This document shows, piece after piece, positions 2,519 through 37,807 of a DNA stretch of 64,000 nucleotides. The stretch is taken from sequence record KX130862. The stretch is one strand, 5' to 3'. The number at the start of each line of letters is the position of its first letter. The stretch's first letter is position 1. Origin of the DNA: Shigella phage SHFML-26. Made by a program: the position numbers and the translations under genes. Under the pieces are notes generated by a model. It was not told where the DNA came from. It saw only the letters and a list, made by a program, of their open reading frames with translations, and searched no databases.

Positions 2519-4696
2519 TTAGGCCGCAAGGGCCTTCATAGTTTTAGCGATTTGAGAAACTTCATCATCACTTAAAGAGTTGCGATAACCGATGAAGTCG
2601 GAAACAATACGGAATTTCTTGGTAAACTCAGCAACCATTTTATCGCTGTTTTTTGAAGCATTATTTGATAATACATCAAAAAGATTAGTTACTGTCCAGA
2701 TGTCATGACCGATGGTATCTTTTCCACCATTAAAATATACGCCCCGTAATGAACTAACCATATTAGCGAGTCGTGTATATTCTTCAGAAACTTCATCTAT
2801 ACTGAAGTACTTCATCATAAAATCTAACTCAGGATACTTGATAATTTTATCAATATATCGTTTAGCTGAACTTGAATAACCTACATACTTATCATAATCT
2901 ACATCATCAAAAGCATCTACATATAAATCACGCAAAGCTTCAAAAATACATTGGCACTGACCGAGTTCTTTTACCTTTTTCTGCAAAAGCGGACGAATAA
3001 CATAAAATTCATTAATGCCAATAAGATTAGCCATACGAATCAAAATATTCATAGATGGATGACAAAGAGATGTAGTACCATCCATAGAGAAAATATCAGA
3101 ACGATGCATATACGCTACATACCCAGTAATTTCATCTGCTTCTGATGTGAGCGTAAATAATTCCTCTTTTTCCCAGCGCCCGTCTTTAATTTCAAACTTA
3201 AATGCTGTAGCAGCTTTAGGACGAGGAGCTTTACTTTTAACTACCTTTGGAATATAACTTTTTACTAAAGCTTCAATTTCTGACAAATAATGAATGTTAA
3301 CTTCATCACTTTCAAACATCGCCATAATATCAGGGAGTAAATCAATCTGCGATTCTACTTCTGGATTAATAAACAGAAGACGTTCGTTATGATGAATATT
3401 CAAAGTGTTATTAAATTCACTATCATCTAACGCTCGTGCTAATCCACGAACAATATTAACACGATTTTTAATATTATCAATAACGATATTAATTTTTGTT
3501 GTATTAATACCAAACAGACGATAACTTGATGCAACGGCTGAAGTTTCATGACTTTGCTTAATGCGCTTCAGTCGAGGGTCAAGATTTACTTCATACACAA
3601 CTCCTGCATTGCATAACTTACTATCAGGTTCAAACATGCTTTGCATCTTCTTATATGACAGATTTTTAGTCGTAAATTTGACTGAATTACTAATCATATA
3701 ATCTCGAGCAGAATACCCCATCTTCATCAATTCACGATATGTGTGACGAGGAGATGTAGATTCTTTAAATCGTTTTACATCTTCATTAAATGCTTTCTCA
3801 CTGAGTTCTTTAACTCGTTCAATAATATTTTTACGAGTGCGATCATCCAGTGAAAGAGCCTCGCGAGATGGAGCAATATCAAGTGAACCCATTGGAAACT
3901 TAATGTAATTCACTTCATTGCGAATGCTTAGCCAGTTACGGTCTCTAATAACACCATCAATAGGATAAACAATACCGCCATAGATAGCATATAATCCACC
4001 ACGATCAGGCCAGTATCTTTCTGGATTTACACCATAATAATCATCAAAATCAGGAAAATAATCAATTTCGCGGTCAAGACCATTAATGATAGCCAAATCT
4101 TTGAACGGTCGCATGATATAAGAAACTTCATAAGCAAAGTTTCTAAAATCTTTTTCTTCAACTGGAACTACGATTTCAATACCAGTTTTATCATCTGGAC
4201 CCATTTCTTTTACGAATGTAGGTTTAATCTGTGGGCCATCACCATCCATGTAAGCTACATAACCACGAATTTCACCTTTATGATACGAAGTAATACTAAA
4301 CGTATCAGTATAACTAAACGGAGATTTAGAACCTAAACCAAATCCGCCAATAAAGTCATTAGATTCAGCTTTAGATGAACTGAAGTATGAATTATACAAC
4401 CCAGGAGAATTATCATCACCTTGAATATCAAAATCACTCATACCCGGACCAAAATCTCGACAAACAAATCGCGGATCTAAACGTCCAGGAACTTGTATAA
4501 TAAATTTTTCAGGATTTCCATTAAGTGCATGAGCATCAATCATGTTAGTAATCAATTCACGGACTACTGCGCGAATCTTGTTTGTATACAAATCAGATGA
4601 CAGAATTTTAAATACTTTAGGAGATGCTGTGATGCTAAATGCTTTTGATTTAGAACCATTACCAAGAATTGTTTCTTTTTCAGTAGTGATAATCAT
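2519..4696 (-). CDS. rIIA: rIIA protein (725 aa)
   Basis: 725-aa ORF, recognised rIIA sequence and length. Confidence 0.9.
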
Positions 4697-24638: not shown

Positions 24639-25481
24639 TTAATCAACTGCTATTGGATGAATAGCATTAAACTTATGAAACGCTTCTGATTTTTCTTTGC
24701 GCGAAACACACATGCGAAGAACCTTTAATGGCTCGTCTTCTTCACCTAATGATTTTCGTTTTTCAATATTAGAAGTTTTCCAACGAGCTTGCTCTGGAAA
24801 CTCTCTATTGATTTGCTCAAGCGCTCTATTATGTTTAGAATTACTACGAATTGAGCTACATCCGCCTGGAGCTTGCGCTTTTCCAGATACAACCAGATAT
24901 TTGAACAAGGCCAAATGCGGATAACCTTGATTAATTAAATTGAGAAATGCATACATATCTTCGCATAAATCAATTTTTCCATACCCAATTTGTTCTGTTG
25001 TAAGTTTTCCAAGGTCATACCAAGTATTCGTGAATCCATATGAATTTTCACGATAATTACCCCAAGATGAAGTAATTTTAAAAATTGGTAAACGAGCATG
25101 ACCATGATAATACCCGCAATCCATGGCATCTTCAACGTATTGAATCAATTCATAGAACTGTTCACGAGTTAGCTGATTAATTTTATCTACGCAGCGACGA
25201 TCATCTTTCTTTCGCATTGAACTCATACGAATAGTAGTATCATCATCAATCATCCAAATTCGTTGACCTGCATACATATCAGTAATTGCTTTACGAGTAC
25301 CAGCAATTCCGTTAACATCATCAGGAATAGTTATAATTTTAGCTCTAGACCCGTAAGCGTCATAATAAGCTTTTTCTTCGTGTTCACGCACTACAATATG
25401 AGGTTCATAATCAGTCGGAAACATATCAAGGGCAGAAACTGCCCCTACGCGTTGATAGCTTGGAATTACGAATTGAATCAT
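24639..25481 (-). CDS. glycosyltransferase (GT-A-like with DxD motif) in the DNA glucosyltransferase position
   Basis: MIDDD motif; ATG at 25479-25481 forms ATGA overlap with gene 42 stop. Confidence 0.6.
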   Translation of the reverse strand: MIQFVIPSYQRVGAVSALDMFPTDYEPHIVVREHEEKAYYDAYGSRAKIITIPDDVNGIAGTRKAITDMYAGQRIWMIDDDTTIRMSSMRKKDDRRCVDKINQLTREQFYELIQYVEDAMDCGYYHGHARLPIFKITSSWGNYRENSYGFTNTWYDLGKLTTEQIGYGKIDLCEDMYAFLNLINQGYPHLALFKYLVVSGKAQAPGGCSSIRSNSKHNRALEQINREFPEQARWKTSNIEKRKSLGEEDEPLKVLRMCVSRKEKSEAFHKFNAIHPIAVD

Positions 25482-26218
25482 TTCCACTCACCGTTATAAT
25501 CTTTTTTCGCAATATGAGTTTCGCCAGTTTTCCACCAATGGTCAACCAAATAAAAATGACGGGAATACACATGAAGGCTCCCGACATTCCATATAATGGA
25601 ACCTGCTTTATACTGACGAGTTGAATCACCTGCATTCAAATCAGATACTAATTTATCTAGTACGTATTTTTGCCATGCATAATCATTACGGAATCCGAAA
25701 ACCACGTCATTTGAACGCATGCTTACTACTGCATTGACTTTCTTGTCACGAATCAGATACTGTACGGTATTCGTACACATGAAATCTGACATACCATCTT
25801 TATTGTAGTCAAACTGCATAGATGGACGAGTATAAATCATGATACCACGTCGAGAATCAGGATTTTGACCAAGTTCAGCTAGACACATATCATATTGAGC
25901 ATAGTTATCTTCTGACCAGATAGCCCAACCATAATTCGAGTTAATTTCACCTTTAGAAGATGCTACCTGCTGCCAAATCTTTGGTGTTTCACCTGGAATA
26001 TCTTTAACAAACAAGCTCTTAGATTTATACCATTCAAGTTCACGCTGGATGTATTCATCATTAAGAGCGCCAAAAATAAACGGTTCATCTGCTACAAATG
26101 ATGCGCCAATAATTTCAATAGTTTTAACGCCAGTTTTATCAACTACGAAATCTTTTTCTTTTAATGCAAGCCCCAAATGAAGACGGATTTCTTCAACTGT
26201 CATAGAGTCACTAATCAT
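25478..26218 (-). CDS. 42: dCMP hydroxymethylase (gene 42)
   Basis: 246 aa; thymidylate-synthase-like fold; recognised sequence. Confidence 0.9.
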   Translation of the reverse strand: MISDSMTVEEIRLHLGLALKEKDFVVDKTGVKTIEIIGASFVADEPFIFGALNDEYIQRELEWYKSKSLFVKDIPGETPKIWQQVASSKGEINSNYGWAIWSEDNYAQYDMCLAELGQNPDSRRGIMIYTRPSMQFDYNKDGMSDFMCTNTVQYLIRDKKVNAVVSMRSNDVVFGFRNDYAWQKYVLDKLVSDLNAGDSTRQYKAGSIIWNVGSLHVYSRHFYLVDHWWKTGETHIAKKDYNGEWK

Positions 26219-31027: not shown

Positions 31028-31714
31028 TTAAAAATCGTGGGTAGAATCAGCTTCAAGAGCTACTACATAATTCGCATGTTCACCTTCAAATTTAGCAGCA
31101 CCTTGTTTACCTTTTGCCCAGAGCAGAAGTTTATAATTTCCTGGTTGCATTTTCATATTTGCCATGTTGATAATGAAATTAAATGTATTTTCACCATCAT
31201 AATCACCAAGAGTCAAAGAATATTTAACACGGGTCAAAGCAGAATCTTCTACTTTATTAAAACCGTTAATTACGATTTTACCTTCTTTTACTGTGATAGC
31301 AATTGTATCAATCTGCAGACCACGAGATACACGCAACAGCTGTTGAAGGTCTTCAGCTTTAATTTCAGTAACAACAGATGCTACCGGGAATGGAATTGGT
31401 TTATTAGGAGCAACTACTGTGCTCGGATCAGCTGCTGGCCAAAAAATTGTTGAACGAGCATCAGCAATTTTAATATTTCCATCTTCTGACTGGGAAATTT
31501 CTGCATCGTCATTAACTAGGGACAGAATACCGAGAAAACCGTTCAAATCGTAAATTGCTACATCAAAATCAATAGTGTCAGAAATATTTGCTTCCGCATA
31601 AGTTGTACCATTAACTGCGCGAGTCATAATAAATTGACCAGATTTAAGCATAATGCCAGAGTTAATAGTAGCGAAATTTTTAAGCAGAGCAGTAGTATCT
31701 TTAGACAGTTTCAT
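31028..31714 (-). CDS. 45: sliding clamp (gene 45)
   Basis: 228 aa, recognised gp45 sequence. Confidence 0.9.
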   Translation of the reverse strand: MKLSKDTTALLKNFATINSGIMLKSGQFIMTRAVNGTTYAEANISDTIDFDVAIYDLNGFLGILSLVNDDAEISQSEDGNIKIADARSTIFWPAADPSTVVAPNKPIPFPVASVVTEIKAEDLQQLLRVSRGLQIDTIAITVKEGKIVINGFNKVEDSALTRVKYSLTLGDYDGENTFNFIINMANMKMQPGNYKLLLWAKGKQGAAKFEGEHANYVVALEADSTHDF

Positions 31715-31769: not shown

Positions 31770-32159
31770 TTAACGATTAAAATCGGCAGCAATTGTTTCC
31801 GCAACAATTTGAGCAGCAACAATTAGACGTTCATCTGCATTACCACAATAATCATCTTCAAGACGTTCACCACATGAAGTCATAATAAATTTAGCACCAG
31901 CATTTAGAGATTCTGTAGTATGTTTGCGCATTAGTTCAATCCATTTATTACTTACTTCACGATCGATAGCTTCATAATACGCATGACGAGCAGGTGCAGA
32001 TTTAATTTTGTTCTGAATAACTTCCATTGCGTTATCAGAAAGAGACAAAACCCATGCTCGACGAATTTTATTTTGGTTTTGTGGATTTGATTCAGAACGC
32101 ACGTGTTTTGGCTGAATATCTTTTACATCAACAGTATAATTCACAGTAATTTTAGTCAT
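31770..32159 (-). CDS. rpbA: RNA polymerase-binding protein RpbA
   Basis: 129 aa, position between 45 and 46. Confidence 0.7.
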
Positions 32160-32168
32160 AATACACCT

Positions 32169-32357
32169 TTAGTCATAATAATCAGTAACAGTCCAAGCTT
32201 CATTTCTATTGGACATTATTTTTGTATATTCTGCTTTAAATGCATTCTTAAGCATAGATTCAGTAACTATATGCTCTTCATTAGAAAAATTATTTCTCAG
32301 AATATATCGTTTTATTTCAGGAATAGTTAATAGATGCTGTCCAGTTGAATATTCCAT
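32169..32357 (-). CDS. hypothetical protein (45.2 position)
   Basis: ORF track. Confidence 0.5.
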   Translation of the reverse strand: MEYSTGQHLLTIPEIKRYILRNNFSNEEHIVTESMLKNAFKAEYTKIMSNRNEAWTVTDYYD

Positions 32358-32412: not shown

Positions 32413-34095
32413 TTAAACCATTACAGTAAATCGACCAACTTTCTTCATTTGAAGATGCTGACCATATGCTTGCGGGTCGTGGTCTCTATGTGAAATAACA
32501 AAAACATTAGTATTTTTTAAACTATCTAAAATAGTTGAAATAGCTTTTACACCTTCAACATCGGTTGCTGAATCAAAAACTTCGTCAAGAATTAACGTGT
32601 TTATTTTAACACCTGAAACTTTTTCAGCAATATCACGCCAAGTAAATAAAAGAGCAATATCAATTCGTGCTTTTTCGCCTTGACTGAATGAAGCATAACT
32701 AAAATCTTCACGACCGCGGGATTTAATTGTCTCATTAAATTCTTCATCTAATGTAAACACATAATCCGCTTCCATTATTTTAAGATAATGGTTAATCTGC
32801 TTATTAAATAATGGAATGTACTTTTTAATAATAGCACCTTTAATACCAGAATCTTTGAGCATATCAGTCAAAATTCCTCGGTGGTATTTTTCCATTACTA
32901 AATTAGTTTTTGTCTTAACAATTTTATCAAGTTCTTCTTGAAGCAGTGCTATTTCATCAGCATGGTCAATAAACTCGGATGATGCTTTTTCTATAGCTGC
33001 TTTAACTTTTTTAGCTTTATCTACAGTCGTGATTAGAGATTGCTTTTTATTGCGAATATCATTCGCCAACGTCTGCTGAGTTTTAATATTATCTCGGTAT
33101 TCATCAACAAGAACTTTTAAATTATCACGATGTGTTGAAAGCTGTTCAAACGAATGCGTACATTCAGAAACTTTATCTTTAATTTTAGAAACAACTTTAT
33201 CACCGGAACTCAATTGTGACAAACAGGTTGGACATAATCCACCTTCGTGATACATATTAATGACTTTATTATACGAGTCAATTTTTGATTTAATTAAAAC
33301 TGCTTCTTGACCGATTTTATTAAATGCATCAGTCGGGTCTTCATCTAAAACAATATTAACTAATCTTTCATTAGCTTTTTCTATTTCCGATTTTAGCGTT
33401 CTAGCTTCTTTTGCCAAATCATCATACATATTTTGCAGACGAGTAAGATTGTCACCCGTTAATTTTTTCTGGCGTTCAACGTTATCATTATATATTTTAA
33501 TTTGTTGGATAATACTATCTTTTTTAACGTCAAGCACTTGGTTTTGTGAATTTAATTCACGTATTAGTGCTTTATTAAGCTTATCCATTTCAGCTAATGT
33601 TCCTACCTCAAGCAGGTCTTCCACAAGCTTTCTTCGCGCAGGGGTCGACAAACCCATGAAAGGGGTATACCCTGCTGTACCAAGGACAACAATCTGCTTG
33701 AAACTGGCATATGACATTCCGATAAGCTGTTCAAATTCTGCTTGGAAATCTTTACTGCTGGCAGATTCATTAAGACGTGTACCGTTAACGGTGATTTCAA
33801 AAACGTTCGGTTTTTGTCCTCTTTTGATATAGTACTTTTTCTCATCATATTCCATCCACAGTTCAACTAAAAGTTCTTTCTTATTTGTGCTGTTTATTAA
33901 TTGGCCTTTCTTTACATCACGAAATGGCTTGCCAAAAAGCCCAAATGTGATGGCTTCTAACATAGTAGACTTACCACCGCCATTTCGTCCAGTAATAAGA
34001 GTTTTTTGAACCTTATCTAATTGAATGTCAACTCCATTTTGACCAACTGACATTATATTTTTATATTTTACTCTATTAAGTTTAAATGATTTCAT
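32413..34095 (-). CDS. 46: recombination endonuclease subunit gp46 (SbcC/Rad50-like ATPase)
   Basis: 560 aa; Walker A GRNGGGKST, coiled-coil middle, CPTC zinc hook, signature and D-loop at C-terminus. Confidence 0.9.
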   Translation of the reverse strand: MKSFKLNRVKYKNIMSVGQNGVDIQLDKVQKTLITGRNGGGKSTMLEAITFGLFGKPFRDVKKGQLINSTNKKELLVELWMEYDEKKYYIKRGQKPNVFEITVNGTRLNESASSKDFQAEFEQLIGMSYASFKQIVVLGTAGYTPFMGLSTPARRKLVEDLLEVGTLAEMDKLNKALIRELNSQNQVLDVKKDSIIQQIKIYNDNVERQKKLTGDNLTRLQNMYDDLAKEARTLKSEIEKANERLVNIVLDEDPTDAFNKIGQEAVLIKSKIDSYNKVINMYHEGGLCPTCLSQLSSGDKVVSKIKDKVSECTHSFEQLSTHRDNLKVLVDEYRDNIKTQQTLANDIRNKKQSLITTVDKAKKVKAAIEKASSEFIDHADEIALLQEELDKIVKTKTNLVMEKYHRGILTDMLKDSGIKGAIIKKYIPLFNKQINHYLKIMEADYVFTLDEEFNETIKSRGREDFSYASFSQGEKARIDIALLFTWRDIAEKVSGVKINTLILDEVFDSATDVEGVKAISTILDSLKNTNVFVISHRDHDPQAYGQHLQMKKVGRFTVMV

Positions 34096-34110
34096 TTTGT
34101 ATCCAATTGT

Positions 34111-34965
34111 TCACAATGAAGAAAATTCTTTAACTAAAGCCTGTAATGAAGCCTCTATTGGATATCCATTCTTAACTAACATTTTCCTAAACATCACATG
34201 TTTAGGACGATTATATGATATCCACAATTCATACAATTTATCTTTATTATCCCAATGATAGCCTTTTCGTCGAGATGCTATATGAGCTTTTCTAATCTCC
34301 GGATTTTTCCAACTAGCAGCTACTGAATTTGATATAGCTATTTTATATTCAGGTTTTGATAAAGCAGCACGAACAGCCTTTTGGTGTTTAATTTTATTTT
34401 CTTCGTTATTAAACCATTCCCTTGAAGCCATTGAAATTTTTTGTTTTGTTTTAAAATTATTTAATCTTTCTTTGTTATCTTTCCTATTTTTTGCTACTGA
34501 AAAATATTTTAATGCCCTTTCTCTAGCAGCATTTCTATTTTGCGGATTTGAATAATATTGTTGAAGCCTTTTTGATATTGTGTCACTTACATCTTGTTTT
34601 ATAAAACTATATTCAGCAGCTATTAAATCAACTTCGGCTAAAGATAAATTTTTATATGTTTTTCCTGACATCATTCTATTTAAAGCATTTAGCATTTTTC
34701 CATTTTTACCTTTTGCTAATAAGAAATGTGCTTTAAAATGATTAAAATGACTTAAATTAACTAAATTCCATGTAGATTTTAAATATTCAGGAAATATTGA
34801 TTTAGGAAGCACGTGATGTGCTTCCGTTTTACCTGGAGTTTTAACAGTTGAATTCATAGAAATAAAATTAATGTAAGACTTGGCGTCTTCTTCACTCAAC
34901 GCTAATTTTTCAACTAATTCCTTTATTAAAAATTCATCATTAATGTCAAGTTTAAAATTCTTCAC
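34111..34965 (-). CDS. free-standing HNH homing endonuclease
   Basis: HNH-like motif (EAHHVLP...NLVNLSHFNHF); GTG start at 34963-34965 behind AAGGAA; inserted between 46 and 47. Confidence 0.65.
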   Translation of the reverse strand: MKNFKLDINDEFLIKELVEKLALSEEDAKSYINFISMNSTVKTPGKTEAHHVLPKSIFPEYLKSTWNLVNLSHFNHFKAHFLLAKGKNGKMLNALNRMMSGKTYKNLSLAEVDLIAAEYSFIKQDVSDTISKRLQQYYSNPQNRNAARERALKYFSVAKNRKDNKERLNNFKTKQKISMASREWFNNEENKIKHQKAVRAALSKPEYKIAISNSVAASWKNPEIRKAHIASRRKGYHWDNKDKLYELWISYNRPKHVMFRKMLVKNGYPIEASLQALVKEFSSL

Positions 34966-35165
34966 AAAAGATTCCTTTTAATGTATCTTTTAGACCATTC
35001 TATCATATCATCATAATCTAAAAAGTATTCATCAAATTCAGCCATGCAAACAACGCCTTGTGCTGTTTTTGATGTAATATAAATTATTCCAACATATCTA
35101 GAATCTTCTTCGGTATAATCAATATTTGCTATGAATTCATCATTAATGTCAAATGTCGAAAACTT
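34962..35165 (-). CDS. hypothetical protein (46.1 position)
   Basis: Start placed at GTG 35163-35165 behind AGGA; N-terminus KFSTFDINDEF repeats the HNH gene start. Confidence 0.4.
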   Translation of the reverse strand, partial: KFSTFDINDEFIANIDYTEEDSRYVGIIYITSKTAQGVVCMAEFDEYFLDYDDMIEWSKRYIKRNLL

Positions 35166-35412
35166 CACAATACGCATCCTTAATACAAGATACAGCCATA
35201 TCTCGTAATGATTTAAGTGTGTCATTATCTAAAATGTTGAAGTTAAAAGATACAGCCCAATCTGTACAGACCGTAACCTTTTTAATACAATTATCTTCAA
35301 CCTCTAACGGTTCAAACCAATATTCAATAATTTCTTTATGACCAATATCATCTTTTACTTCGCATTCAAAATGCTGACTCATCATAACATTTTTAAATTC
35401 ATCAAAAGTCAT
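35149..35412 (-). CDS. hypothetical protein (46.2 position)
   Basis: ORF track; ATGA overlap with gene 47. Confidence 0.45.
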   Translation of the reverse strand: MTFDEFKNVMMSQHFECEVKDDIGHKEIIEYWFEPLEVEDNCIKKVTVCTDWAVSFNFNILDNDTLKSLRDMAVSCIKDAYCEVFDI

Positions 35413-36428
35413 TGTGTTGCCTCTACATATAGCTGATTTGCATATTGAATAAGTGCTTCACGGTCAGAATCAGTGATGTCTGGAATTGCATTAATGTATT
35501 CTTCCATCAATGTCTGAAGCGATTGAACTTCAACTTCTTCACTGTCATCTGACTCGACAGAGTTATCAATCTTTGACACAACTCGTAATGAATGCACAAC
35601 TTTTTCTAGTTCAGATTCGAACTTCGTTAGATTTTTGTCTACTTCAGTTACTATAACACGTACTGATAGATTTGTAAAATCTTTATAGTCAATTTTTCCT
35701 TTAAATGGATAATGAATTCTACGATGCCAGGTAGTATTGTTTGGAATAAATTCCATTCGTTCTGTTTCTGTATCAAACATCCAGAACCCACGAGGGTCAT
35801 TCTCGTCACCTGCAGTTAGTGTCCATGGTGTCCCAATATATCTAACGTTAGCAGCCTCAGAGATAGTATGGAAGTGACCAGACCACACTTCTTTATAAGT
35901 CTTAAGGAAATCAGGTTCAAGACCGTGAGATTTCATTCCTTTATAAAAATAAAATCCATTCAGTTCCCAGTGACCAACACAAAAAGAAGCAGATGAAGTT
36001 TTGATGTGCTCAAGAATTTCACCAGTATTTTCTTCGCACATCCAAGGAATTAAATCAATTAAACATCCGTCAAAATCTACTGTAGTAGGCTTATCATATA
36101 CTTTAACATTAGGATATTTAGCCAAAAGCTCAGTAGAAGCATTTGGATGCATTACATTTTTGTAGTGGAGATCGTGATTTCCTACAATAGTATGTAATGT
36201 GATTCCAGCACCATCAAGCATTTGAACTATTTCACGGGCAAACTCCATAGTTTTATGCGTGATCGCTTTTCGTACATCAAAAATATCACCGTATTGAATC
36301 CATACCGTAATTCCATTTTTCTTAGAATATTCTATCGCTTGCTTAATTCCATCAATTTGAATACCGCGAATCCACTCATCATCAGCTTTAACGCCTAAAT
36401 GCCAATCACCCAAGTTTAGTATTTTCAT
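35409..36428 (-). CDS. 47: recombination endonuclease subunit gp47 (SbcD/Mre11-like)
   Basis: 339 aa; phosphoesterase motifs (GDWHLG, GNHD, GHWE). Confidence 0.9.
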   Translation of the reverse strand: MKILNLGDWHLGVKADDEWIRGIQIDGIKQAIEYSKKNGITVWIQYGDIFDVRKAITHKTMEFAREIVQMLDGAGITLHTIVGNHDLHYKNVMHPNASTELLAKYPNVKVYDKPTTVDFDGCLIDLIPWMCEENTGEILEHIKTSSASFCVGHWELNGFYFYKGMKSHGLEPDFLKTYKEVWSGHFHTISEAANVRYIGTPWTLTAGDENDPRGFWMFDTETERMEFIPNNTTWHRRIHYPFKGKIDYKDFTNLSVRVIVTEVDKNLTKFESELEKVVHSLRVVSKIDNSVESDDSEEVEVQSLQTLMEEYINAIPDITDSDREALIQYANQLYVEATQ

Positions 36429-36579: not shown

Positions 36580-36606
36580 TATAAAGCTAAAGGGCCGAAG
36601 CCCTTT
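36580..36606 (-). terminator. stem-loop/terminator after a-gt
   Basis: AAAGGGCUUCGGCCCUUU overlapping a-gt stop. Confidence 0.45.
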
Positions 36607-37807
36607 ATTTTGTAATAATGTCAAACTGTTCTTTAAAGCAGAAGCTTGAATCTTGATGCTGATACAAAAATTCATAAGCTTTTTCTCGCTCACGGTCATA
36701 AAGAGCTCGGTCAGATGACAGTTCTTTAATACGTTCAAATGTTGATTCCATGTCATTTTCATCAAACCAAATGATACCGCTATCATGCGAGGTCAAAGGA
36801 GTATTATCAACACGGAATTTTAAATTTTCGCCAGTAGATTTCCAAAATACCGGAATTGTTCCACATGCACCAAGCTCGAGATGAGTATATTCTAAAGAAC
36901 GTTGTAGATATTTTTTGTCCAACTTACTCAACTGATAACCAAATCCGGATTTACTCATGCGTTCAAGCATTTCGCTATTTACATAACGGTCAAGAATTTG
37001 CGTTGGCAAATTAGGAGCAATTTTAATTTGGTCTACTTGATGAAGACGATAATACTCATATGGAATTCCTTTTTCTTTAATAGGAATGAACGCTGGAGAA
37101 CGTTCCAGACCTTCCATAATAGTACTTAGCCCAGCAGGTTTAAGATGTTTTTCGTGAAAATCAAACATCTGATAAAAACCTTTCCATGTAGTCGTACGAC
37201 CAATCCAGCGGTTGACATTCATGTTAATTTCAGAAACATCTTTCCAGTAGGTTGATCGAACCTTCGCAATATCCATAGGAGGCTGAAAGTTGTATACAGT
37301 CGGTGCTTCTTCAATATCATCAAACAAAGAAACAGTTTCTGGATACCATTCTTTCATCAGAACTTTATTAAAATCACCATTATCAGAATGACTAAAAATA
37401 ACATCAGCTCGACGAACAGTTTCTTCTAATCCCAAATTTCGGCGCAAAGAAAGAGAAGAATGGTCATGTTGATAAACTACAACACGAACTGAAGGTTTAA
37501 TGTTATCAATAATTTTTTTATAGTTATTAATAGTGTCTTCTTCGACTGAAGTAGCAGGAACTGAATTGATAATTAGAATATCACAATCATTTACCAGCTT
37601 AAGTGTTTTATCGTATTCTTTTGCCAATAAAACCGGAATTGAAAATGATTTATAATCATGTGCACAGTTACGAGTAAATGATTTATCTTTAGCATAAACC
37701 AAAGTTACTTCATGACCATTTTTAATAAACCAATCACGTTGCTCAAGAGAAAATTTAGTTACACCGCAACCTTCAAGACCTCGAGCCATAAAAATACATA
37801 CTTTCAT
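36605..37807 (-). CDS. agt: DNA alpha-glucosyltransferase (a-gt)
   Basis: 400 aa, GT-B-like; position after gene 47. Confidence 0.8.
   Translation of the reverse strand: MKVCIFMARGLEGCGVTKFSLEQRDWFIKNGHEVTLVYAKDKSFTRNCAHDYKSFSIPVLLAKEYDKTLKLVNDCDILIINSVPATSVEEDTINNYKKIIDNIKPSVRVVVYQHDHSSLSLRRNLGLEETVRRADVIFSHSDNGDFNKVLMKEWYPETVSLFDDIEEAPTVYNFQPPMDIAKVRSTYWKDVSEINMNVNRWIGRTTTWKGFYQMFDFHEKHLKPAGLSTIMEGLERSPAFIPIKEKGIPYEYYRLHQVDQIKIAPNLPTQILDRYVNSEMLERMSKSGFGYQLSKLDKKYLQRSLEYTHLELGACGTIPVFWKSTGENLKFRVDNTPLTSHDSGIIWFDENDMESTFERIKELSSDRALYDREREKAYEFLYQHQDSSFCFKEQFDIITK

Follow-up and report, generated by a model that had tools for sequence, protein, structure and literature searches.

A probable Mob-family homing endonuclease gene that begins on the captured start of recombination gene 46 in Shigella phage SHFML-26

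We analysed a 64,000-nucleotide (nt) stretch of the genome of Shigella phage SHFML-26 (KX130862), hereafter called the window, around an open reading frame (ORF) of 284 amino acids (aa) that an initial annotation had placed between genes 46 and 47 and described as an HNH homing endonuclease. The window belongs to Tequatrovirus (T4-like, of the T6/T2-like type), and its closest relatives are vB_Eco_F26, FJ1, Lutter, RB51 and T6, with 98.5–99.2% identity over 33900–35500. All the genes around the ORF lie on the minus strand. The ORF (34111–34965; GTG start, TGA stop) was confirmed within the 46–47 interval, and its immediate neighbours are genes 46 and 46.1. Gene 46 (32413–34095) encodes a Rad50/SbcC-like recombination nuclease subunit and is the host gene whose 5′ end appears to be targeted. 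The 46.1 gene (34962–35168), also starting with GTG, encodes a 68-aa protein that matches Pfam DUF5487 over residues 1–66 of 66 (E 4.5e-50). Beyond it lie 46.2 (35149–35412) and gene 47 (35409–36428).

In T4, 46.1 directly abuts gene 46 and the endonuclease is absent, as seen in the window–T4 alignment. Gene 46 of T4 starts with GTGAAGAATTTTAAACTT followed by AATAGAGTAAAATAT (continuing AATAGAG after codon 6), and its GTG overlaps the stop codon of 46.1. The window shares this upstream sequence and these 18 nt with T4 and then continues with GACATTAATGATGAATTT and the remainder of the endonuclease ORF. Past the endonuclease stop codon there is a 15-nt spacer, ACAATTGGATACAAA (34096–34110, minus strand), and then gene 46 restarts, 870 base pairs (bp) downstream, with ATGAAATCATTTAAACTT followed by AATAGAGTAAAATAT. 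The cassette absent from T4 (34078–34947, minus strand) is thus 870 bp long and consists of the endonuclease from codon 7 onward, the spacer and a replacement start for gene 46. As this segment follows directly on codon 6 of gene 46, the endonuclease uses the gene 46 ribosome-binding site and the first six gene 46 codons. The first 18 nt of its ORF (34948–34965, minus strand) are the first six codons of a T4-type gene 46, both in the T4 alignment and in a three-way alignment of the starts. Its GTG overlaps the 46.1 stop codon (GTGA) and is preceded by the gene 46 ribosome-binding site AAGGA at ∼34973–34977. Therefore, the endonuclease took the ribosome-binding site, the start codon and the first six codons of gene 46, and gene 46 is restarted by sequence that the cassette carries (ATGAAATCA...), the spacer between the endonuclease stop and the new ATG being its new translation initiation region.

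The replacement start (34078–34095, minus strand) encodes MKSFKL, compared to MKNFKL in T4. Its Ser codon, TCA, is otherwise seen in the gene 46 starts of Mosigvirus genomes that lack the endonuclease, and a 15-nt stretch, ATGAAATCATTTAAA, is identical with Mosigvirus gene 46 starts; this identity is mostly protein-constrained. The cassette is bounded by a 9-nt direct repeat, TTTAAACTT (left copy 34948–34956, right copy 34078–34086, both on the minus strand). This repeat is the conserved codon 4–6 sequence of gene 46 and marks a crossover point. Identical junctions were found in T6 and in one ENA contig. The idea that the spacer and the 3′ end of the endonuclease are a remnant of a Mosigvirus-type 46.1 was rejected, as local alignments with 10 gene 46 upstream regions scored no better than shuffles (best p ∼0.08; 0.24 for RB69). 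We also observed that the endonuclease TGA, the spacer and the gene 46 ATG (34096–34113) are in one frame with no further stop codon. Read-through of the TGA would give an endonuclease–gp46 fusion; the shared frame has a chance of 1 in 3 and may be fortuitous.

The same junctions could be read in the opposite direction. The order 46.1–endonuclease–46 would then be ancestral, T4 would have arisen from it by a deletion between the 9-nt repeats, and GTGAAGAAT would originally have been the start of the endonuclease. Such a deletion, between 34948–34956 and 34078–34086, would indeed restore the exact T4 sequence, and the endonuclease-less genomes of the T4 type share a gene 46 patch (described below) with the endonuclease-positive genomes, which fits the idea that at least some lineages lost the endonuclease. 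This reading does not account for where the 18 nt come from: their product is the conserved gp46 N-terminus, of which FKL (codons 4–6) is part in every genus examined, hence the 18 nt are of gene 46 origin. MKNFKL also starts gene 46 in the Tegunavirus fHe-Yen9-01, where there is no endonuclease, and the ∼365 endonuclease-less Tequatrovirus records with the other, B-type patch also start with GTGAAGAATTTTAAACT. The TCA-type start is found in Tequatrovirus only together with the endonuclease. We therefore consider a derived T4 arrangement unlikely as the general explanation; it may apply to some T4-type genomes.

The initial annotation had pointed to another similarity, that between the start of the endonuclease ORF and the start of the small gene next to it, 46.1. 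Both of the quoted starts are present, GTGAAGAATTTTAAACTTGACATTAATGATGAATT running from 34965 to 34931 and GTGAAGTTTTCGACATTTGACATTAATGATGAATT from 35168 to 35134, the latter 3 nt away from the position 35165 that had been given. The first 35 nt of the endonuclease ORF and the first 35 nt of 46.1 are identical, in register, at 29 of the 35 positions. An exact 19-mer, TTGACATTAATGATGAATT, occurs in the window only at 34931–34949 and, within 46.1, at 35134–35152 (both on the minus strand); 0.02 matches are expected by chance even with two mismatches allowed (100 shuffles). A repeat search also reported the pair, as a 46-nt direct repeat with a spacing of 203 nt. Endonuclease codons 7–12 (DINDEF; 34931–34947, minus strand) match codons 7–12 of 46.1 at 17/17 nt, and these together with the two preceding bases form the 19-mer. 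The start of the endonuclease is an in-register chimera, in which nt 1–18 come from gene 46, nt 19–35 come from 46.1 and endonuclease sequence follows. It is this chimeric captured start that explains the repeat.

A gene start is truly duplicated at this locus, as had been proposed. The further proposal, that the 46.1 repeat is a target-site duplication left by a mobile cassette, did not hold: the repeat flanks the body of 46.1 and not the cassette, and therefore it is not a target-site duplication of the transposon style. The mark of the insertion is the duplication of gene 46's own start, which had gone unnoticed and is evident from the T4 alignment. A transposon-type insertion was rejected on several grounds: the 46.1 repeat does not flank the cassette, the 9-nt TTTAAACTT belongs to the conserved coding part of gene 46 and occurs in recipients as well as donors, the repeat search of the window found no inverted repeats at the cassette ends, and the sole ORF of the cassette is a Mob-like nuclease. 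To our knowledge, homing endonucleases make no staggered-cut duplications.

Where the 46.1-like codons came from is suggested by other genera. At the position of DINDEF, divergent DUF5487 proteins have NLDDEF (L014), HEF (RB69, S16) or HDF (pEC-M719, fHe-Yen9-01), encoded by different nucleotides. The endonuclease has about nine extra N-terminal residues, its HH pair being at residue 50 compared to a median of 41–42 in 54 homologs, and its first 10 residues have lower AlphaFold confidence. From these sequence comparisons, DINDEF is native to 46.1, which points to a transfer from 46.1 to the endonuclease. The closest of the distant homologs (∼43% identity) fill the same slot in Mosigvirus and Gelderlandvirus. 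In the Mosigvirus-type phages phiEC1, F2 and AV112 the order is 47–46.2–endonuclease–46, without 46.1, and the Mosigvirus endonuclease start, ATGACGAAGACTGATTATGAAA, equals the first 22 nt (seven codons) of 46.1 in RB69 and PTE-Eco05. Three states occur in Gelderlandvirus: 47–46 (STML-198), 47–46.1–46 (S16) and 47–endonuclease–46 (Melville; 5/16 records). In these two genera, the endonuclease and 46.1 are thus alternative occupants of one slot.

Because the Mosigvirus homolog replaces 46.1 and starts with its seven codons, we read codons 7–12 of the window endonuclease as a relic. The best explanation seems to be that the endonuclease was once fused to 46.1 at the 5′ end of that gene, an arrangement extant in Mosigvirus. 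A donor of the form 46.2–[46.1 codons 1–12::endonuclease]–46 would have existed. Either an in-register illegitimate crossover, or priming of a break end at gene 46 codon 6 on the 46.1 start (12/18 nt identical), would then have given the product 46.1–[46 codons 1–6 + 46.1 codons 7–12::endonuclease]–46, in which 46.1 was kept and a two-gene start was gained.

Instead of being a relic of a fusion, the 19-nt identity could reflect a signal shared by the two genes, such as a promoter −35 element (TTGACA) or the site of a translational regulator, or a patch of gene conversion. The repeat does start with TTGACA at the same distance from both start codons, and conversion could have been seeded by the loosely similar N-termini of certain endonuclease homologs (MDINFKS, MIDAET). 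However, a consensus scan called no promoter at either copy and found no excess of sites in the region (12 versus 9.7 ± 3.4 in shuffled sequence), so a promoter common to both genes was rejected. A strict nucleotide constraint is also argued against by phage BEU50 (described below), whose endonuclease has two synonymous changes in the 19-mer. Moreover, the sequence that the Mosigvirus homolog shares with its local 46.1 is a different one, as capture of a local start, unlike a conserved signal, predicts. A shared signal or a conversion patch is, in our judgement, very improbable.

Two further loci bear on the history of 46.1. In Salmonella phage S16 (690–896), a gp46.1-like gene is annotated with 40 aa, and its reading frame stays open further upstream, as far as a GTG overlapping the stop codon of gene 47. 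This gene is probably longer than annotated, the extended product being a full-length DUF5487 homolog (VKLHEFNLGNGWYG...). STML-198 has its gene 46 start at the place of this upstream GTG. In L014 (IMGVR_UViG_2706795408_000001, 2501–2760), the background is pEC-M719-like, and a T4-type part runs from about codon 13 of 46.1 to the start codon of gene 46. On its left, this mosaic is bounded by the DEF codon at which the endonuclease and 46.1 diverge in the window, which suggests a recurrent recombination point. S16 and STML-198 have GTGAAA in common at the same position, and 46.1 and gene 46 of L014 share 17/21 starting nt. This is suggestive of 46.1 itself having arisen by capturing the gene 46 start; the stretch is short and is partly 46.1 homology, and we do not claim such an origin.

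The protein encoded by the ORF matches PHROG 655 ('homing endonuclease') over its full length (E 7.8e-45) and PHROG 12434 ('HNH endonuclease') over aa 14–132 (E 4.4e-15). In tblastn searches, it matched T4 MobD with 30% identity over aa 47–281 (E 3e-11), as well as many genes annotated as Mob-like or MobE-like in other T4-like phages. A search of 1.8 billion cluster representatives with the N-terminal 134 residues gave 1032 homologs (E ≤0.001); another, word-indexed search with this domain retrieved near-identical fragments only. In an alignment of 59 diverse homologs, Y31, H50, H51, P54, N67, H76 and H80 are invariant. Several of these homologs join the domain to NUMOD3 (12/59), NUMOD1, I-TevI DNA-binding, helix-turn-helix or intein domains, and such a modular make-up is typical of homing endonucleases. 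An AlphaFold model built on the 59-homolog alignment has a mean predicted local distance difference test score (pLDDT) of 87, with strands at 47–51 and 68–72 and a helix at 73–84. H50 and H51 are on the first strand of this model, N67 precedes the second and H76 and H80 are on the helix, which is the beta-beta-alpha layout. We place the predicted catalytic core, based on the invariant residues and the model, at residues 47–84 (EAHHVLPKS...WNLVNLSHFNHFKAH; 34714–34827, minus strand). A first, shallow model had a pLDDT of 53 and its Foldseek matches were meaningless; the weak teneurin matches (probability ≤0.25) were set aside as uninterpretable.

According to published accounts, an HNH domain at the N-terminus is common to all T4 Mob proteins (PMC2790892) and the T4 mob genes are tabulated as HNH (PMC2988022). 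Our ORF appears to be a member of the Mob family by homology, and an HNH enzyme only by motif and predicted topology. In favour of the HNH designation of the initial annotation, the HH...N...H motif is invariant in the 59 homologs and a PHROG HNH family is matched; the Pfam HNH models did not recognise the protein, as detailed below. The mobile type proposed for the enzyme was supported by the MobD homology, the PHROG matches and its presence or absence among near-identical phages. Within the codons for the catalytic EAHHVLP motif we also observed a GC-rich palindrome, GGAAGCAC(N5)GTGCTTCC, at 34805–34825. In a terminator scan it is terminator-like on the antisense strand; on the sense strand no U-run follows the hairpin. 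MobE contains an internal terminator (PMC2790892).

The whole arrangement of the window is present in 70 of ∼510 Tequatrovirus records, among them T6, T2, RB51, RB68 and PP01, and the carriers include isolates from Escherichia, Shigella, Citrobacter, Hafnia and Salmonella. ENA contigs have the same architecture. About 437 Tequatrovirus records lack the endonuclease and have ∼98% identical flanks, so that comparison of the 46–47 region in related phages revealed the insertion as present in some and absent from others; these are counts of records, which are not phylogenetically independent. Homologs were found in 10/162 Mosigvirus-type and 5/16 Gelderlandvirus records. The RefSeq annotation already reads 'homing endonuclease'. 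Petrov et al. (2010) counted HNH genes in T2 and T6 and left the gene 46 locus undescribed, the tables of a 2010 review (PMC2988022) do not list its endonuclease, and in the searchable literature we found no paper characterising it. One record, BEU50 (OM632671.1), has a Mosigvirus backbone with ∼1.24 kb of Tequatrovirus sequence (∼190–1430 of the locus in gene orientation). This segment comprises the last 85 nt of 46.2, a T4-type 46.1, the endonuclease and gene 46 nt 1–82. From its mosaic sequence, BEU50 looks like a product of cross-genus homing with short co-conversion tracts.

Directly 3′ of the insertion point, gene 46 contains a hypervariable patch of the 'KYKNIMSVGQNG' type at nt 17–66 (codons 6–22; 34030–34079, minus strand), and the flanks on either side of it are near-identical within each genus. 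In Tequatrovirus, the patch reads KYKNIMSVGQNGVD in the window and T6, which have the endonuclease, and, among genomes without it, RYQNIMSVGGNPID in the B-type and KYKNIMSVGQNGID in T4. The Mosigvirus phages phiEC1 and F2, with the endonuclease, have RYKNIMSVGQNFID, and RB69, without it, has RYQNIMSVGGNPID; PTE-Eco05, also without it, has the same patch as phiEC1. Among the Gelderlandvirus phages, the patch is KYSNIMSVGQVPID in Melville, with the endonuclease, and KYQNIMSVGGSPID in STML-198 and S16, without it. The same amino-acid contrast, YQ..SVGG versus Y[K/S]..SVGQ, recurs in the three genera. The SVGQ type was found in every aligned endonuclease-positive genome; T4 has an SVGQ patch without the endonuclease. 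In numbers, at least 68 of the 70 endonuclease-positive Tequatrovirus records have a T4-type patch, and the endonuclease-less ones divide into ∼72 of the T4-type and ∼365 of the B-type, to which RB3 belongs.

MobE of T4 nicks nt 122–126 of the downstream nrdB, and a short polymorphic stretch at that nick site distinguishes mobE-positive from mobE-negative genomes (PMC2790892). As the patch contrast mirrors this MobE/nrdB relationship, we predict that recognition or cleavage takes place within about nt 20–70 of a B-type gene 46. The patch is likely to be the recognition and immunity site. On this view, the empty genomes with a T4-type patch would be resistant, either through loss of the endonuclease, for which a deletion between the 9-nt repeats is one conceivable route, or through receipt of the patch alone.

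Taken together, we conclude, with a probability of roughly three in four, that the ORF belongs to the free-standing homing endonuclease genes of the T4 Mob (HNH) family, with gene 46, at its 5′ end, as its specialised target. The enzyme would be made at a low level by translational coupling in the 47–46.2–46.1 operon. In a mixed infection, it would nick or cut a gene 46 that lacks the endonuclease, probably in the YQNIMSVGG-coding stretch (nt ∼30–60), and recombinational repair would then copy the cassette together with the protective patch.

A broader version is possible, and we put it forward tentatively. According to it, a single endonuclease lineage, devoted to the gene 46 5′ end, has spread across three or more genera of T4-like phages, each time with an in-frame capture of the start of the displaced gene (46.1 in Mosigvirus; 46 and 46.1 here). 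The YQNIMSVGG stretch would be its site, and T4 would be 'resistant-empty', through deletion between the 9-nt repeats or acquisition of the patch alone. If this is true, then the susceptible, invaded, decaying and resistant-empty stages of the homing cycle are all present in one sequenced population.

Several results weigh against the main interpretation. The 'protected' patch is carried by ∼72 endonuclease-less records, including T4, and could be a hitchhiker. The nucleotide identity of the patch across genera is far higher than the identity of the endonuclease proteins: Melville and T4 are identical at 24/24 nt over gene 46 nt 10–33, and phiEC1 differs from the window at 2/30 positions over nt 31–60, compared to 9–10 differences in the neighbouring bins. 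A search for a co-conversion haplotype revealed none specific to the endonuclease in flanks more than ∼100 nt away. BEU50 is flagged UNVERIFIED_ORG and is oversized at 193 kb, and its mosaic could be an assembly artefact. The proposed donor lacking the body of 46.1 is not among the 70 endonuclease-positive records, all of which have the architecture of the window, and the IMG/VR and JGI metagenomes gave no exact match to the endonuclease sequences. On the side of the protein, the Pfam HNH models match neither the endonuclease (E up to 1) nor 58 homologs, the PDB gave no match in sequence searches with the single sequence and two profiles, and Foldseek found no significant fold match to solved structures; NCBIfam likewise had no match for the endonuclease. 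Because Pfam HNH and PDB matches are absent, the HNH assignment is built on the motif, the predicted topology and the homology to T4 Mob proteins.

Some of these results would also be expected if the ORF were a domesticated or inactive relic, no longer mobile, that is inherited vertically as baggage of the T2/T6-like clade, the repeat being functionless. The missing flank haplotype and the failure to find the element in the metagenomes fit such a relic, as do the T2 and RB68 copies, which are frameshifted and truncated, respectively. However, the ORF is intact with all the invariant catalytic residues in most copies, and 51 records are ≥99% identical. The diversity of hosts and phages that carry it, the correlation of its presence and absence with the target-side patch in three genera and the possible cross-genus transfer in BEU50 also speak for mobility. 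We consider a relic quite improbable as the overall explanation; it is possible for individual copies, such as those of T2 and RB68, and not for the intact majority.

The remaining genes of the region, all on the minus strand, are gene 45 (31028–31714), rpbA (31770–32159) and 45.2 (32169–32357) on the far side of gene 46, and a-gt (36605–37807) beyond gene 47. Elsewhere in the window, a 282-aa ORF (24639–25487) adjoins gene 42, at the place where T4 has a 351-aa beta-glucosyltransferase gene. The size difference would fit a glucosylation gene set of the T2/T6-type rather than the T4-type. Between a-gt and gene 47, one Tequatrovirus contig from ENA has a 207-aa ORF (437–1060), and the window has small ORFs only. 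In phage F2, the opposite strand carries another putative homing endonuclease gene, directly downstream of gene 46 (3486–3755 of the F2 locus).

With these results, the T-even model system of homing gains a Mob-type endonuclease whose target is predicted, at a locus that is new to the searchable literature. T2 and T6 carry the endonuclease and T4 is without it, so the predictions are directly testable with classical phages. The locus offers an example from nature of a selfish, promoter-less gene that can reside inside an essential gene without harm, via a captured ribosome-binding site and codons and a substitute start for the host gene, and the two-part chimeric start records moves between adjacent slots. 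The parallel patches of gene 46 in three genera provide a hypothesis for target recognition and immunity. The Rad50-like nuclease subunit is itself listed as possibly contributing to end processing during homing (PMC2988022). The general picture of intronless homing is unchanged.

Among the known systems, the endonuclease shares with T4 MobD, and with MobA–E in general, an N-terminal nuclease domain with HH...N...H and a variable C-terminal region. Like the T4 Mob family, it is encoded by a promoter-less ORF that lies between conserved genes, overlaps the upstream stop codon and is patchily distributed in T-even phages. It differs from MobD in location, upstream of gene 46 rather than at the nrdC.11/mobD.1 locus, and the identity is only ∼30%. 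Unlike MobD, it resides inside the downstream coding sequence, after codon 6, starts with captured host codons and is known from sequence only. The homologs of Melville, phiEC1, F2 and AV112, also MobD-like, are much closer: they have ∼43% identity over the full length, occupy the same slot upstream of gene 46 and are accompanied by the same SVGQ-type patch, and those of phiEC1 and F2 likewise begin with captured 46.1 codons. The Mosigvirus endonuclease replaces 46.1 and that of Gelderlandvirus directly follows 47, both with 3′ ends that overlap the gene 46 start, whereas the window endonuclease coexists with 46.1, has a start made of gene 46 codons and then 46.1 codons, and has the 15-nt spacer between it and gene 46.

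The best functional analog is T4 MobE (PMC2790892), which is also promoter-less, has a start codon overlapping the upstream stop and targets the essential gene downstream of it, in its 5′ region. At this target, genomes with and without mobE differ in a short polymorphic stretch with a proposed role in self-immunity (PMC2790892). The patch at gene 46 nt 17–66 is comparable to it. The activity of MobE has been mapped in vivo, whereas the target of the gene 46 endonuclease is only predicted. MobE also sits between intact genes, at the nrdA/nrdB locus, and leaves the downstream start codon alone. An insertion within an essential gene with retention of the host function is reported for the mobE-like insertion in nrdA of Aeromonas phage Aeh1 (PMC3045599). 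There, nrdA is split into two polypeptides that must reassemble, whereas gp46 stays a single polypeptide in which six codons were swapped for near-equivalents.

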